NCBI GenBank assembly: GCA_030692925.1
Contig: JAUYBY010000078.1
Span: 1-63,202 of the forward strand
Reading direction: 5' to 3'
Length of the DNA: 63,202 nt
Origin: Candidatus Zixiibacteriota bacterium
GTDB lineage: Bacteria > Zixibacteria > MSB-5A5 > RBG-16-43-9
A program made the position numbers and the translations under genes. Shown here piece after piece: positions 20,725 to 58,995 of this stretch. Each line of letters begins with the position of its first letter. Positions within the stretch are counted from its first letter, which is position 1. The notes under the pieces were generated by a model. The model was not told where the DNA came from, made no database searches, and was given only the letters and a program-made list of their open reading frames with translations.

Positions 20725-20787
20725 CGCTGGTTGTTGGTCTCCAAACCAACAGGTTGCCTGCGTTGGTGAGGACACCAACGCAGAGCA
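20725..20787. repeat. GTTGG-type REP doublet (A + inverted B)
   Basis: GTTGGTCTCCAAACCAAC then GTTGGTGAGGACACCAAC, matching the RAYT-flanking repeats. Confidence 0.85.
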
Positions 20788-23215: not shown

Positions 23216-23793
23216 TGTCATTGCGAGGAGTTCCCTTAGGGAGCGACGAAGCAATCCGTACAAAATTAGTATCCCTACCTTGCCCCCAAAGCGGGATATC
23301 CAACAAACTGTAGGGGCACATTGCAACGTGCCCCTTGTATACTGGAAGCGTAGGGACAGAACAGTGTTCTGTCCCTACAGCTTTGTTCCCTCTCCTTTTC
23401 AAGCCGATAAAAGCTTTACGGTCCTACGGAGGCTTCGCTCCTCGTAGAGGAGTGGGTCAGAGTGAGGTTAAAAATATAGCGTGGGGCTTTATGCCCGACG
23501 TTTTTTGTAGGTAGAGACGCATAGCCATGCGTCTCTACCTGCTCTTCGTTGGTGTCCTCACCAACGAAGGGTATTAGCTGAGGAGTTCATTGCTTCGTTA
23601 GCGACCCTAAAAGGGTTGCGCTACAAGCTTCACCCTCAAACAAGTTTGAGGGTGCCACCCGCCGAAATACGAAAAAAATAAGCAACCCTGAAGGGTTGCC
23701 TTACGATTTCTTTTCCCCGGTCACGAAAAACTGTAAACGGTCCCGGTTTTTTATTTTCCCTTGAACCCTCGACTCCTCGAATCCTCGAACCCT
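23216..23793. repeat. dense mosaic of different REP-like palindromes in a convergent intergenic region
   Basis: GTAGGGGCAC.., GTAGGGACAGAACAGTGTTCTGTCCCTAC, GTAGAGACGCAT..ATGCGTCTCTAC, GTTGG-type REP (23544-23569), GCGACCCT..AGGGTTGC, CACCCTCAAAC..GTTTGAGGGTG, octamer tandem repeat. Confidence 0.85.
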
Positions 23794-29953: not shown

Positions 29954-30118
29954 CTTCTCCTCCAGTTTTAGGTTCACCTTCAAGTTCCAACTTAATCCCA
30001 GAAAGCTTTCAAGTCAAATAAAATCTTCTCGAATGGAGTGTAAAGCTTTAGCTTTACTCATTGGCCTTTGCTCTTCGTCCGAACTTGTCGTCAAGACCCA
30101 AAATCGGGGATCCATAGG

Positions 30119-30173
30119 ATTGGTGTCCTCTCCAACGAAAAAAGTTTGTTGGTCAGGAGACCAACAAACAGCG
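30119..30173. repeat. GTTGG-type REP doublet (reverse orientation)
   Basis: ATTGGTGTCCTCTCCAAC and GTTTGTTGGTCAGGAGACCAACAAAC. Confidence 0.8.
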
Positions 30174-30417
30174 AGGGAAGTCTCCACACGTTCAACTCGT
30201 AGGTCGGGCACCCTTGCCCGACCTACGTTGGATACTTTTTTAGCGATCCAGCTATCAAATACAATTAAATAAGCAATCCTTATGCCTGAAAAATAAGAAT
30301 TGGGGGGTTCTGTAAGTGGCTGATTTATACGCAGATATTTGAAGGTTTATCTTTTAAAGAAAATCTGAAATCATCTTCTTGCACAAAAATCATTCAGAGG
30401 CAAAACTTTTTTGTGCA

Positions 30418-41415: not shown

Positions 41416-41538
41416 TGCTCCTTGTTGGTCTCCAGACCAACAAGGTTCCTTTGGTGCTTTGATTAACGAGGCTCCGTTGGTGAGGACACCAACGGAAAGC
41501 GAGGGAATGCTGGTCGTTGGTCTCCTGACCAACGACCA
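41416..41538. repeat. REP array downstream of the RAYT gene (A, degenerate, B, A)
   Basis: GTTGGTCTCC[A/T]GACCAAC and GTTGGTGAGGACACCAAC hairpins. Confidence 0.9.
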
Positions 41539-41539
41539 A

Positions 41540-42085
41540 TCATACAAGGTCTCTAGGATCGGTCAATTTAAAGAACTTAAAAGGTTTCTCAGATAAGTAA
41601 TAGGCTGCGCTTGAATAAGGGTGGTCCTCTGGATAATCAACTAATCTCCATTCAGGTTGAATCGGATTATTATGAATATATTCAGCTTTCTGTAATAGAA
41701 ATTTAGCTGAATAGATATTTTTAAAGTTAGTGTCCCTCTTCCAGATTTGATATAATCTATCCTTCTTTTTCACCATAAATTTACTCAATAAATGAGGATC
41801 TGTTTCTTTCATAACCTTAATTATCTGGTTGGCGGTAAATTTGTGGAAATCCTGGTTTACTTTTTCCATTCTATTCTCGCCTAAGAGTTTTAGAATGAGA
41901 TGAAGGTGATCCGGCATTAAGACAAATGCATAAATATTAACCCATTCATTCCTGGTAATAAAATTCAGACTATCTAAGATTATATCAACATAGATAACAT
42001 CGTGAAAAATAGGAACCCATTTAATAATGGTAGAAGTGACAAAGAAAAGATGTTCTTTTTCAAAATCTCTTACTTGTTGTTTCAT
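41540..42085 (-). mobile_element. REP-associated tyrosine transposase (RAYT/TnpA-REP, HUH Y1 family)
   Basis: FFVTST, AFVLMPDHLHLIL (HUH), FHKFTA, QIWKR, EYIHNNP (catalytic Tyr), YSSA; flanked on both sides by palindromic repeats. Confidence 0.92.
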
Positions 42086-42097
42086 ATAATTCTACCC

Positions 42098-42289
42098 CTT
42101 GGTTGGTGAGGACACCAACCGAGAGCATCGTCTTGCTCCTTGTTGGTCTCCTGACCAACAAGGAGCAATGTATCTATAGACAACAGGGCTCCGTTGGTGG
42201 GGACACCAACGGAGAGCACAGTTCTGCTGGTCGTTGGTCTCCTGACCAACGAGGCCTCCCCCTGTTGGTGAGGACACCAACAGGAAGCA
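42098..42289. repeat. REP array upstream of the RAYT gene (B, A, B, A, B)
   Basis: five alternating hairpins starting at 42102, 42142, 42193, 42233, 42264. Confidence 0.92.
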
Positions 42290-43679: not shown

Positions 43680-43846
43680 TGTCATTCTGAGGGAGTCCAG
43701 ATGGACGACCGAAGAATCTGTCGAATTTGACCTTGAGGCAGATTCTTCGCCCTGCGGGCTCAGAATGACAAAATAACACTTCCCGCACAGTCACTTTTAA
43801 CCTCCGACCAACAAGGCTCCATTGGTGAGGACACCAACGGAGAGCA
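43680..43846. repeat. TGTCATTCTGAG element followed by a partial A and a B GTTGG-type REP
   Basis: matches 19043-19136; CTCCATTGGTGAGGACACCAACGGAG at 43817-43842. Confidence 0.8.
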
Positions 43847-44758: not shown

Positions 44759-44918
44759 CTCCGTTGGTGTGGACACCAACGGAGAGCACCACCCTGCTTC
44801 TCGTTGGTCTCCTGACCAACGACCAATTCTTCTGCTCCTTGTTGGTCTCCGAACCAACAAGGTTCCTTTGGTGCTCTGACCAATGAAGCTCAGTTGGTGA
44901 GGACACCTACTGAGAGCT
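44759..44918. repeat. GTTGG-type REP array (B, A, A, degenerate, B)
   Basis: same hairpins as flank the RAYT; ~44832-44917 is a diverged copy of ~41415-41500. Confidence 0.88.
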
Positions 44919-45200: not shown

Positions 45201-46181
45201 ATGCCGGAATTATTCTTCAAAACTCCTATGGAAAGTAAACATCCGGAGGAAAAAGGTAAGGTTTATGATTTGATAATCCTGGGCGGGGGCCCTGCAGGAC
45301 TATCTGCAGCACTTTACGCTGGACGAGCCAGGCTGGATACCCTTTTGATAGAAAAAAATCTGCCCGGAGGACAGATCTCGATTACCGATTGGGTGGAGAA
45401 CTATCCCGGTTTCCCGGAAGGTATAACCGGGCTGGACCTTGCAAAAAAATTTGAGGATCATGCCAGGAAATTCGGAACCAGGATAGTTCTGGAGGAAGTG
45501 GTGGATGTGGACCTCAAATCAGAGCCTAAGATTATTAAGACCTCTCAGGGAGAGTATCGTGCACACGCTATAATTTTAGCCACTGGAAACGAGCCCAGGA
45601 AATTAAATATACCGGGGGAGGAGAAATTTAAAGGCAAGGGTGTATCTTATTGCGCCACCTGTGATGGGCCCTTTTTCAAAGATAAAGACATAGTCATTGT
45701 GGGATGCGGAAATTCCGGGGTTCAGGAAGGACTTTATCTTTTGCGGTTTGTAAAGAGCATCACCTTTGTGGAACGCCTTCAATGTCACAATGCGGAAAAA
45801 ATCCTGATGGAGAGGGCATTGAAAGAGCCGAAGATGAAATTTTATTATGAGCATGAGCTGGTCTCCATTGACGGTAAGGATAAAGTGGAATCTGTAACTG
45901 CCATTAATCTGAAGACCAAGGAGAAAATGGTGATCCCCGTTCAGGGCGTCTTTTTCTACGTAGGATTAGTGCCAAAAACTGAATTCCTGAGAGGAAAGGT
46001 AGACTGCGATCCTTACTGCTATGTCATCTGTAACGAGAACTCCTGCACCTCAGTCCCGGGAGTTTTTGCAGCAGGTGATGTGAGAATGAAAGACGTCAAG
46101 CAGATAGTTACCGCAGTGGCAGAGGGCGCTATTGCGGCAACTATGGCCTTGAAGTATCTGGAAGGGAAAAAGGAAATGTAG
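45201..46181 (+). CDS. trxB: thioredoxin-disulfide reductase
   Basis: GGGPAGLSAA, ENYPGF, GVSYCATCDG, GVFAAGDV. Confidence 0.94.
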   Translation: MPELFFKTPMESKHPEEKGKVYDLIILGGGPAGLSAALYAGRARLDTLLIEKNLPGGQISITDWVENYPGFPEGITGLDLAKKFEDHARKFGTRIVLEEVVDVDLKSEPKIIKTSQGEYRAHAIILATGNEPRKLNIPGEEKFKGKGVSYCATCDGPFFKDKDIVIVGCGNSGVQEGLYLLRFVKSITFVERLQCHNAEKILMERALKEPKMKFYYEHELVSIDGKDKVESVTAINLKTKEKMVIPVQGVFFYVGLVPKTEFLRGKVDCDPYCYVICNENSCTSVPGVFAAGDVRMKDVKQIVTAVAEGAIAATMALKYLEGKKEM

Positions 46182-46287
46182 CGGAGGTCTTCAGACCTCC
46201 ATTTGTCTTTCGTAGTGCGACCCTTTTAGGGTCGCCTATGACTCTGGTGTGTCAACCTTCAGGTCTACCATTAGTAAAGCTAAAGCT

Positions 46288-48558
46288 TTACTCGCCAGGA
46301 TGTTCCTCGAGGTCCTTCCGCAACCTATCTACAAACTTAATAATATCTTCCTTTTTCAGCTGAGAAAGCAACTCATCTTCAAAAGACAAATGTAGTCTAT
46401 TTAGCCTTAAATGATCTGGGTCAATCCTTCGAAGCTCATTGAACAAAAGTTCCTTATGTTCAGGATATTTCTTACAATATTCACTCCAGAATTTATCTTT
46501 AACCTGTTTTAAAAAATTAGTATAAACTACTTCAGAGCCATTTAAAATACATAAATATGTAGCTCTCTCAAGAATACGTATGGGGTCGAAGCCATATGCA
46601 TTCTTCTGTTTTTCTAAAAATGAATTGGCAATCGAAACAATGATATCAATTATTTTATTTACGCTTTCTACCAGAGATAGTTCATTAAATTCGTTTCCGA
46701 TCCTCAACAAATTATCAAGTATTTGTAATTCACCGGGCTTCGTAATTTCTTTATGATAATGGTAAATTCTCCAATAATTTGAAATTATCCATTCAATATT
46801 ATCTAGAATTTCTTTTTTCTGTATACTATCGATAATATCTAACTGATAAAATTTCAACAAAACCATTGCGATATGTTCGATATTTGCATCTATATAATGA
46901 ATAAGAAAAGATTCTTTCTCTGCGGCATATTTTGATAACTCATCATAAAAATGCCAAACTTCGTGTCCGAAGTCTATTATACTTTTTATCAAGTGCTTCT
47001 TATCTTGATCGGTGGTTTTGGGATCTTGAATTTTATTGTAGACCTCATCAAAGATGTATGGCATAGCTGTCTGTTTTCCGAGATAAACAAAATCCCCAAG
47101 AGAAAACTCCATTTCCACTAAAGAAATAATGCCCATCTCTTTTATCTTCACATATAAGCTTATTATCTGTTGCACCTTCTCTAATATTCTCTTCGATAAT
47201 AACCCATGATCGATATTTCTGCTGTAAAGAATAGCCCTTAACAATATACTGTAAGCCTTCAGGGGATTAGCGATAAGATAGCTAGTATTTGGTTTTAATA
47301 ACCCATACATGGCAATTTTTGAAAGATAGTCTAAAATTTTGTTTACATCTGTTTGAGACCCTTTAACAATAAGAGCTAATCCAATGTTTCTTAATTTTAT
47401 AGAACCTTGTATCCCTATATCAAACAATTCTGCATTTAAACCTTTTTCAATATTCTGTACCATATACCCTGTGGCGAGTATACAATGAGGATATTCATTC
47501 AATGGATTTGTTCTATAGCGTATTTCTGTGCATTTAATGGCTATTTGGGAGAGACAATTAAGTATCTTTTCCGAAACTGCGAAGTCTTTTAAAGTTATTC
47601 CTTGGATAGACAATAATTTCTCAAAAATGTCTAACAAAAAAGCGTCATGGGAGTAATCTAGTGATAGGAAAGGAGAAGATGGCATGAAAGTTCCGTCTTT
47701 AACCTCAATATACTTATAAACCAATGAGTATACAGCGTCAACACCCTTTCCGGTAACCTGGTAATCTTTTCGTAGTTGGTAAGTTTGGATAAGAGAGTAA
47801 ATCTCATCTAAGTAGTTTTTAACACCATTAAATAGATTTGGAAGACGAAATATTGCTGCCCCTCTAAGTCGATCACGCTCTTCCTCTTTGCTGCTGTTGA
47901 TCTTTATATCGTTTTGGGCTAGTCTAATTACCTTTGCTTTTATTAATCTATCTAAATACTTGTCAATCTTATTTAACAATTTAATACCTTTTTTATGGTG
48001 ATGAATTATTTGATAAATAGGATCGATAAGATTTGAAATATGAGCATATTGTTTTCGGAGTAGGTAAAAGATTATTATGAGAAAAAAGAACAACAAAACC
48101 ACTTCATAGATTAACAAGTAATTGATAGGTAGCAATGCAAATAGAAAAAATGCAAAGGAAATACTAGCAATCGTTACAAAGATATACCTATTAATCTTAT
48201 CTTTCCTGAAATTACTTAGAATAGTCGGAGTGTATCTCTCAGCAGCTTGCTGTATTGCGAAAAGCGACAAGGAAAATGTAATTGCGAGAACCGTAAAAGT
48301 TGCTGCTCCAAGTGTTATAAAAAGAGTAGGAAAAAAGCTTGTTAAATTTCCAAAAGAATCTACATTTAATCTAATCAAGAAATTTCCAATTTGTGAATGA
48401 TACTTGTATAAAAGAGAAACTGAAATGCTTAAAATAATTAAAAAAAGCCCCCATTTCAAAACTCGTCTTACAGAGTAAGAACTTTCTAAAACCTTAGAAC
48501 GGATAATCAAGTATAATCTAGAAAATAATTCAGTTAGCTTTGAAATAATCTTTTTCAA
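46288..48558 (-). CDS. large hypothetical protein with N-terminal TM helices (DUF2254-like) and helical C-terminal region
   Basis: 756-aa ORF, GGAGG RBS and TTG start; LAITFSLSLFAIQQAAERYTPTIL..F motif; visibly AT-rich. Confidence 0.75.
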   Translation of the reverse strand: MKKIISKLTELFSRLYLIIRSKVLESSYSVRRVLKWGLFLIILSISVSLLYKYHSQIGNFLIRLNVDSFGNLTSFFPTLFITLGAATFTVLAITFSLSLFAIQQAAERYTPTILSNFRKDKINRYIFVTIASISFAFFLFALLPINYLLIYEVVLLFFFLIIIFYLLRKQYAHISNLIDPIYQIIHHHKKGIKLLNKIDKYLDRLIKAKVIRLAQNDIKINSSKEEERDRLRGAAIFRLPNLFNGVKNYLDEIYSLIQTYQLRKDYQVTGKGVDAVYSLVYKYIEVKDGTFMPSSPFLSLDYSHDAFLLDIFEKLLSIQGITLKDFAVSEKILNCLSQIAIKCTEIRYRTNPLNEYPHCILATGYMVQNIEKGLNAELFDIGIQGSIKLRNIGLALIVKGSQTDVNKILDYLSKIAMYGLLKPNTSYLIANPLKAYSILLRAILYSRNIDHGLLSKRILEKVQQIISLYVKIKEMGIISLVEMEFSLGDFVYLGKQTAMPYIFDEVYNKIQDPKTTDQDKKHLIKSIIDFGHEVWHFYDELSKYAAEKESFLIHYIDANIEHIAMVLLKFYQLDIIDSIQKKEILDNIEWIISNYWRIYHYHKEITKPGELQILDNLLRIGNEFNELSLVESVNKIIDIIVSIANSFLEKQKNAYGFDPIRILERATYLCILNGSEVVYTNFLKQVKDKFWSEYCKKYPEHKELLFNELRRIDPDHLRLNRLHLSFEDELLSQLKKEDIIKFVDRLRKDLEEHPGE

Positions 48559-51002: not shown

Positions 51003-51091
51003 TCTTCGTTGGTGAGGACACCAACGAAGAGCAGCTTCAGCTTTCCATTCTTCCCCTTCCCAGACCATGGAGGTCTGAAGACCTCCGCTAC
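51003..51091. repeat. GTTGG-type REP plus GGAGGTCTGAAGACCTCCGCTAC (GTAG-type) REP
   Basis: TCTTCGTTGGTGAGGACACCAACGAAGA at 51003-51030; second family also at 10439, 46178, 58911, 60927. Confidence 0.8.
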
Positions 51092-58664: not shown

Positions 58665-58838
58665 ATTATCCTTTTTTATATTCCCCTCCCTTGATGGGAG
58701 GGGTAAGGGGGCGTAGCCTCCCTAACCCTCTCCCACAAGCCGTTAAAAGCCTTACGGTCCTACGGAGGCTTCGCTCCTCGTAGAGGGGAGAGGGAATTCG
58801 TCTAACGTCTCCCTTCTCCCGTCTTACTTGCCTTATTT

Positions 58839-58985
58839 TGCTCCTTGTTGGTCTCCTGACCAACGAGGCTCCGCTGGTGGGGACACCAACGGAGAGCACA
58901 ATAGGTTTTTGTAGCGGAGGTCTTCAGACCTCCATCTTTTTTTATGGAAGGCTAAAGTCTCAAGACCTTGACGGCCTTCCGCTAC
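58839..58985. repeat. GTTGG-type REP doublet followed by a GTAGCGGAGG...CCTTCCGCTAC doublet with a 17-nt insert
   Basis: A at 58847, B at 58873; GTAG doublet 58911-58985. Confidence 0.82.
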
Positions 58986-58995
58986 ATTTAAGTCT

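Follow-up and report, generated by a model that had tools for sequence, protein, structure and literature searches.

Paired but sequence-variable feet in the REP hairpins of a RAYT locus from Candidatus Zixiibacteriota

In an uncultured member of Candidatus Zixiibacteriota, the short palindromic repeats (REPs) surrounding a gene for a REP-associated tyrosine transposase (RAYT) carry, on either side of a conserved core, two four-nucleotide segments (N4 and N4′) that vary from copy to copy and are largely complementary to each other. We consider it very probable that N4 and N4′ are the lowest four pairs of an 11-bp REP hairpin, at whose foot only pairing is selected, on top of old subfamilies that are inherited vertically. 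The window, which is the whole stretch of 63,202 nucleotides that was analysed, comprises positions 1 to 63,202 of contig JAUYBY010000078.1 (GenBank assembly GCA_030692925.1). A preliminary description of this DNA had left three options for N4, namely that only stem geometry is selected, that one arm is copied onto the other, or that N4 is a variable guide or record of target sites; the present evidence and the published biochemistry of other REP/RAYT pairs favour stem geometry. What we observed directly are the structure of the repeats, their covariation, their link to the RAYT gene, the stability of N4 in place and its independence of the flanking sequence.

The span 42098-42289 consists of five REP copies. 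Read on the strand with the purine-rich loop, the unit is N4, GTTGGTS, WGGA, SACCAAC, N4′ and AGCR, the last being a tag that directly abuts the stem on the 3′ side of the hairpin. On the opposite, pyrimidine-loop strand the unit reads YGCT-N4-core-N4′, and only there does YGCT stand 5′ of the hairpin. The stem has 7 + 4 = 11 bp, with N4/N4′ as its four lowest pairs, and the loop has 4 nt. Two types of REP can be told apart by the loop-closing pair of the core, a covarying pair that is either C..G or G..C; the first base of the loop is variable among copies as well. The RAYT gene and the REP copies of the window are as follows, with the two tetranucleotides given as N4/N4′:

41540-42085, minus strand: RAYT gene (181 aa), between two REP clusters
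41416-41445, minus strand: REP, C..G type, loop TGGA, CCTT/AAGG
41472-41501, plus strand: REP, G..C type, CTCC/GGAA (three of four paired), tag AGCG
41508-41537, minus strand: REP, C..G type, GGTC/GACC
42098-42127, plus strand: REP, G..C type, CTTG/CGAG (three Watson-Crick pairs and one T.G), tag AGCA; CTCG/CGAG, perfect, in the G001 and G002 orthologues
42134-42163, minus strand: REP, C..G type, CCTT/AAGG (perfect), tag AGCA; stem runs on through TGCT/AGCA to 15 bp
42189-42218, plus strand: REP, G..C type, CTCC/GGAG (perfect), loop GGGA
42225-42254, minus strand: REP, C..G type, CCTC/GACC (two of four paired)
42260-42289, plus strand: REP, G..C type, CCCT/AGGA (three of four paired); CCCT/AGGG, perfect, in G001 and G002
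43817-43846, plus strand: REP, CTCC/GGAG; its left doublet partner is truncated
44759-44788, plus strand: REP, CTCC/GGAG, loop TGGA
44795-44824, minus strand: REP, GGTC/GAGA (imperfect), identical in G002
44833-44862, minus strand: REP, CCTT/AAGG, one core mismatch
44889-44918, plus strand: REP, CTCA/TGAG, tag AGCT
20725-20754, minus strand: REP, ACCT/AACC (imperfect), half of a head-to-head doublet
20758-20787, plus strand: REP, CTGC/GCAG
23540-23569, minus strand: singleton REP, CTTC/GAAG
30069-30140, minus strand: REP, TTTC/GAAG, split by a 42-nt insert (30078-30119) between core bases 17 and 18
30144-30173, plus strand: REP, GTTT/AAAC, tag AGCG
51004-51033, plus strand: singleton REP, CTTC/GAAG
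58839-58868, minus strand: REP, CCTC/AAGG (imperfect), in a head-to-head doublet without spacer
58869-58898, plus strand: REP, CTCC/GGAG

With at most one mismatch, the core pattern matches the window 20 times, against 0.01 expected and a maximum of one in 100 shuffles, and it matches 89 times across the assembly to which the window belongs (G000; 2.41 Mb in 112 contigs). Allowing up to two core mismatches gave 91 oriented copies, 84 of which carry an AGCN tag with at most one mismatch and form the set used for the pairing counts; the seven left out are five with a foreign insert in the 3′ arm and two with other tails. These 84-91 copies are spread over 30 contigs, and the tag among the 91 is most often AGCA (53 copies), followed by AGCG (15), AGCT (4) and AGCC (2). 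Figures for conservation of the core are partly built in, because the core was the handle by which copies were found; a half-anchored scan, which is free of this bias, gave 1.1-1.8 bits at the core-arm positions and about 0.7 bits at the loop-closing pair. The preliminary description had called the core fixed, which does not hold entirely, in view of its variable closing pair and first loop base. As single-stranded DNA, the copy at 42189 is predicted to fold at -13.2 kcal/mol (z -8.1) into a hairpin whose 11 bp run without a break up to a 4-nt loop, and the copy at 42134 folds at -17.8 kcal/mol (z -8.2). A search of the window against Rfam returned no family at the gathering score.

The product of the gene between the two REP clusters matches the NCBIfam model NF047646 with an E-value of 2.9e-22 and 79.1 bits, just below the cut-off of 80, and matches Pfam Y1_Tnp weakly (19.9 against a cut-off of 23). 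Invariant in 15 aligned RAYT homologues are the HUH histidines H60 and H62 (H-L-H), the motif Y136-I-H-x-N-P, and S158-S159 of a C-terminal EDYxYSS motif, of which D154 is nearly invariant; from this alignment the protein is predicted to possess an HUH motif and a Y1-type catalytic tyrosine. Its AlphaFold model (pLDDT 83.1, pTM 0.81) found as the best PDB match in a fold search the E. coli REP transposase bound to a REP hairpin (4er8_A; E 2.8e-6, TM 0.62/0.67), with IS200/IS605 transposases next. A search of the PDB by sequence only found nothing relevant and missed 4er8.

The REPs are the cognate repeats of this gene, and the locus has the anatomy of a REP/RAYT system (REPtron): REPs flank the gene on both sides, three at 41416-41537 and five at 42098-42289, and 20 of the 84 tagged copies lie within the window, which makes up 2.6% of the assembly. 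Across the genus, REP abundance tracks the presence of the RAYT gene. Orthologues with 92-93% identity occupy the same locus in two sister genomes, G001, with 89 core matches, and G002, with 69; the count for G000 in this comparison is 82. In a further genome of the same genus, G003 (93% complete), there is no close RAYT orthologue (best match 35%), the syntenic site is without the gene and its REP clusters, and the core matches number eight, among them a decayed doublet at the site that corresponds to 43800. The family's other genera possess RAYTs of 38-39% identity, or in one genome (G008) a weak match (31%, E 4e-8), together with 6-20 core matches. All of these genomes are related, so the comparison is presented as counts and without a statistical test.

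RAYT homologues in metagenome-assembled genomes labelled KSB1, Anaerolineae, Armatimonadetes (two), FCB group and Cloacimonadota are likewise flanked by hairpins, of 8-15 bp. Many of the hairpins beside these homologues (loci L086-L095) have a 4-nt loop of AGGA/TCCT or GGGA/TCCC, and AGCR/YGCT adjoins the stem in several of the hairpins; where one of these genomes shows more than one copy, the upper stem is common to them and the lowest pairs differ yet are complementary. This suggests a clade of RAYTs whose loop and tag are unlike those of the GTAG and CGTC types.

The variable segments are paired far more often than chance allows. The preliminary description had listed seven tetramers at ten positions as exactly complementary to their N4′, all of which we confirmed, and had noted that some other copies pair imperfectly, as do those at 42098, 42229 and 42260. 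It had also proposed that all genomic copies be collected and their covariation computed, and this extended the pattern to the whole assembly: N4 and N4′ pair perfectly in 60 of 84 copies, comprising 16 different tetramers, and imperfectly in the other 24, whereas shuffling N4′ among copies (10,000 trials) gave on average 7.5 perfect copies and never more than 17. Counting outwards from the core, positions 1 to 4 are paired in 78, 78, 77 and 68 of the 84 copies and positions 5-12 in 11-32, a drop that places the end of the helix exactly after N4. Over all cells of the alignment, 301 of 336 are paired, a figure that falls to 78-161 if the partner arm is offset by one, two or three columns. The three inner pairs (u1-d1, u2-d2 and u3-d3) each share about 1 bit of mutual information and the outermost (u4-d4) shares 0.48, against a null 99th percentile of 0.17. 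An independent count of pairs in the 20 intact copies of the window gave 93.8% paired (79.3 ± 1.6 when shuffled) and 33 cells changed on both sides (12.6 ± 3.0 when shuffled), and none of 500 shuffles reached either value. In the sister genome G002, 46 of 75 tagged copies are perfect, with 18 tetramers; taken together, G000 and G002 have 22 tetramers in perfectly paired form, linked on a minimal spanning tree by at least 23 pair replacements, and six of these tetramers occur as single copies in G000. The pairing is therefore more than a handful of ancestral subtypes could account for by themselves. The preliminary description had remarked that seven different paired tetramers are hard to attribute to drift.

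N4 is nevertheless not random with respect to the rest of the repeat. Copies of the G..C type mostly have CTYY as N4, and head-to-head doublets join one G..C and one C..G copy in 17 of 19 clean cases, in two forms: one without a spacer, which combines CCTY with CTCC, and one with a spacer of 3-5 nt, which combines mostly GGTY, GATT or TGTC with CTTY. Composition is biased as well, at 0.4-0.7 bits per position, with 49 of 84 N4 beginning with CT and 54 of 84 being all-pyrimidine on the 5′ arm; RAYTs that have been studied cleave at CT, outside the stem. This bias implies that something beyond geometry shapes N4, be it subfamily ancestry, an enzyme preference or a preference for CT as the cleavage site. 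As a cause of the complementarity, pairing between the two REPs of a doublet (the long-hairpin, or REPIN, form) was considered and rejected: of the 152 N4 cells in 19 head-to-head doublets, 124 are paired inside their own REP and 53 would be paired in the long-hairpin form. The predicted fold of a doublet is two hairpins closed by tag-tag pairing and not one long hairpin.

Some copies in G002 (L010:3655, L010:5314-5345, L065:1547-1578 and L071:1588) depart from these forms, having GCGG as the 5′ N4 and A-T in place of G-C as the first core pair. In the GCGG doublets the inner feet pair with each other (CCGCC-AGA-GGCGG), which makes a long hairpin possible. Two of the orthologous sites in G000 have the ordinary form, suggesting replacement or conversion between REP variants at these sites.

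To follow individual copies through time, we mapped 54 REPs of G002 by their flanks to orthologues in G000 and kept 46, after dropping eight pairs (three with an insert, two with a replaced 5′ side, two with masked bases and one that was a second candidate for an already matched copy). N4 and N4′ are identical in 30 of the 46 pairs, and per site they differ about half as often as the flanks (26/368 versus 77/552; Fisher p 0.0013), such that N4, although termed hypervariable in the preliminary description, is not so over time. The core arms differ at 16 of 644 sites, a figure that is biased downward by the core-based finding of copies. Among 24 changed stem pairs, 21 are one-sided, that is, paired in only one of the two genomes, one is compensatory (T-A versus C-G at the outermost pair) and two are of other kinds; the imperfect copies at 42098 and 42260 are such one-sided changes, for which G001 and G002 hold the perfect forms. 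Because compensation was seen once in 24 changes, the route by which the 22 paired variants originated is one that we infer and did not observe.

One conceivable route is templating between the arms, by which a mutation in one arm is copied to the other, either through intrastrand template switching in replication or through RAYT-mediated hairpin copying, so that pairing is restored mechanically. Correction of quasi-palindromes by template switching is an established mutational process, and templating would accord with the high frequency of perfect stems (60/84) and with the 22 paired tetramers, which demand at least 23 double changes. However, between the two species one-sided changes outnumber compensatory ones by 21 to 1, 24 of 84 copies are still imperfect, and imperfect states such as GGTC/GAGA at 44795 and TGTG/CACC are common to both species and hence persist uncorrected. 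Copying of one arm onto the other may have supplied some of the variants, but it is infrequent in place, and we regard it as improbable that it accounts for the pairing. Even less can be said for the view that there is no selection at all and that a few ancestral subtypes were simply copied many times. Subfamilies do exist (the G..C type with mostly CTYY, and the two doublet forms), and N4 correlates with core type at 0.2-0.33 bits; but one genome contains 16 paired tetramers and two genomes contain 22, of which six have a single copy in G000, none of the shuffles attains the observed pairing, and N4 changes half as fast as the flanks. A purely historical explanation is contradicted by how many paired variants there are and by the reduced substitution rate, and we give it almost no credence.

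The remaining option was that N4 is a programmable guide or a record of targets, which would pair with N4′ or with a target tetranucleotide and so set the site of RAYT cleavage or insertion as the guide of IS200/IS605 does, its variety reflecting different targets. The protein is indeed an IS200/IS605-like HUH Y1 enzyme by its match to NF047646 and by its fold, covariation alone fits a stem and a cis-pairing guide alike, and guiding is established for the IS200/IS605 family and for one REPtron (PMC8266576). Against these points, N4 lies within an uninterrupted 11-bp helix, paired in 301 of 336 cells and continuing the core helix without a gap, and the unpaired position 5′ of the palindrome, where a guide would sit, is taken by the conserved YGCT. 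The eight copies around the single RAYT gene have several different N4 (CCTT, CTCC, GGTC, CTTG, CCTT, CTCC, CCTC and CCCT), orthologous copies retain their N4, and the REPtrons that have been studied cleave at CT or CA outside the stem. Nor did the proposed check of N4 against the sequence at element boundaries reveal a correlation: N4, its reverse complement, its complement and its reverse showed no excess over shuffled N4 in 22-26 nt of flank (p 0.09-0.82; 33, 73 and 28 copies, each free of an adjacent REP on the tested side). The other mutual-information signals join N4 to core type and to flank columns that belong to the partner REP in doublets. At two partly readable sites of a filled-versus-empty comparison (L063:2895 and L065), similarity between genomes breaks at or beside the tag, which argues, if weakly, that N4 and N4′ lie inside the element; the comparison covered these two sites because rearrangement and an abundance of other repeats leave no clean filled/empty pairs in the intergenic regions of G003 or in many pairs of G002 and G000. 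With N4 inside the stem, unrelated to the flanks and stable in place, the notion of a guide or target record finds no support, and we hold it to be extremely unlikely. By analogy, the counterpart of the IS200/IS605 guide would be the conserved tag and not N4.

A variant of this idea is that the foot opens when RAYT binds, whereupon N4 together with YGCT would act as a copy-specific guide that re-pairs with N4′ in cis and sets the 3′ cleavage point. If so, complementarity would be selected as that between guide and target and not as that of a plain stem, and each subfamily would have its own address. Such a cis guide, which sequence data alone do not separate from a simple helix, is disfavoured because the REPtrons that have been studied behave otherwise and because N4 bears no relation to the flanks; we judge it very unlikely.

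Selection for pairing alone agrees with the biochemistry reported for two other REPtrons, those of Stenotrophomonas maltophilia (Sm) and Marinomonas (Mb), as described in PMC8266576. There, the tetranucleotide 5′ of the REP palindrome sits at the guide position, and changing it in REPtron Mb redirects cleavage. Swapping blocks of the stem to their complement has little effect, and a swap of the three bottom pairs in REPtron Sm even improves cleavage, whereas a single mismatch in the stem reduces or nearly abolishes it; bases of the loop are essential. By analogy, the present enzyme would recognize the single-stranded hairpin by its conserved features: the loop, the upper stem and the tag, which on the active strand is YGCT and stands 5′ of the palindrome. 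At the foot it would need only an intact helix, whatever its sequence, so that any Watson-Crick pair would be tolerated there. A mismatch at the foot would lower the chance of a copy being copied or kept, and such a filter, acting on ordinary point mutations over a long time, could yield many paired variants, which would be inherited vertically and spread as subfamilies, including the fixed doublet types. The roles of tag, loop and foot are assigned to this RAYT by analogy because its tag differs from the GTAG of the systems studied.

Several known systems resemble this one in part. REPtrons Sm and Mb also combine an HUH Y1 gene with flanking short perfect palindromes that have a 3-4-nt loop and a tetranucleotide beside the stem, and their REPs likewise occur as singletons, head-to-head and tail-to-tail dimers, and clusters; it is in those systems (PMC8266576) that the stem was shown to be exchangeable, pairing to be required and loop bases to matter. 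In contrast to them, the tag here is YGCT/AGCR and not GTAG, the RAYT falls just below the NCBIfam cut-off, and the host belongs to an uncultured lineage. The conserved tetranucleotide is thus of another sequence than the GTAG or CGTC by which REPs are recognized. In the survey of GTAG- and CGTC-tagged super-families by Di Nocera et al. (2013; PMC3733652), alternative complementary residues in the stem divide most REP families into sub-families, heterodimers with different stems occur and stems include G.T pairs, all as seen here, but the tag in our repeats is neither GTAG, CGTC nor any of the degenerate forms listed in the passages covered. The REPINs of Pseudomonas fluorescens, as described by Bertels and Rainey (2011; PMC3116915), are similar in their frequent inverted doublets, their single RAYT and their compensatory changes, which are common and keep the hairpin; they differ in that the two REPs of a doublet here diverge systematically in closing pair and N4, with pairing inside each REP. 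Elements of the IS200/IS605 family (IS608, ISDra2) share a related enzyme fold, recognition of a single-strand hairpin and a tetranucleotide at the hairpin foot, but in them the guide is an unpaired stretch outside the palindrome that matches the site of cleavage or the target, whereas N4 is paired, lies inside and has no match in the flanks; moreover, the REPs here are not the ends of a transposase-carrying element.

The finding is thus an ordinary one, in that these repeats follow the usual rule for REP stems, with a conserved loop, upper stem and tag and a foot that is free but paired, and nothing in it speaks for a new, programmable mechanism of DNA guiding. What it adds is a REP/RAYT system from an uncultured lineage that has been little studied; the system stands out mainly by its unusual tag, YGCT/AGCR, as opposed to the GTAG and CGTC that dominate the literature. 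This tag, together with the hairpin-flanked homologues in several phyla, makes for a clean system in which to ask which parts of a REP the enzyme reads. The comparison of orthologues adds a direct estimate of constraint, in which foot pairs change at about half the rate of the flanks and decay is one-sided.

A number of further features were noted at the locus and elsewhere in the genome. The copy at 42098 sits 13 nt upstream of the RAYT start codon, and N4′ together with the tag often resembles a ribosome-binding purine tract (AAGGAGCA, GGAGAGCA). Five further Y1_Tnp-like genes are present in the genome, on contigs C67, C49, C39, C46 and C11, as are palindromes of other families tagged GTAG...CTAC (window 30199-30228 and many other sites), and the YGCT-tagged REPs often directly adjoin such palindromes or Y1_Tnp-like genes. 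An element of about 92 nt at 43680-43771, whose ends form the inverted repeats TGTCATTCTGAG...CTCAGAATGACA, is present in dozens of copies in all three sister genomes and seems to be what truncated the left-hand REP in the doublet at 43795-43846. Further sequences with multiple copies are found at about 46171-46240 and 58680-58990. A 756-aa open reading frame on the minus strand (46288-48558), with predicted membrane-like segments at its N-terminus, fills a stretch of about 2.6 kb that is absent from the syntenic site in G002, where a REP doublet stands instead.

Finally, a cassette of about 21 nt (T-CCTAYGGATCC-N6-7-GGA) is found inside the hairpins of several unrelated families of palindromic repeats. 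In the window it occurs at 30078-30119, in a long form of 42 nt, and elsewhere in G000 at C62:10008, C62:19345, C72:9824 and C79:9120, as well as at some 57-90 additional genomic sites; of 57 strict matches, 18 fall within a loop closed by a stem of at least 5 bp. No Rfam family corresponds to the cassette, and a literature search with its 11-mers gave primer sequences only. Counts of its 12-mer are 35-99 in some genomes of two families of the order, against 0-12 in others and 0-1 for the reversed control. In REP copies of the G..C type the cassette sits exactly between core bases 17 and 18, and three orthologous REPs have it in G002 and lack it precisely in G000 and G001, the difference amounting to 21 nt without any duplication.
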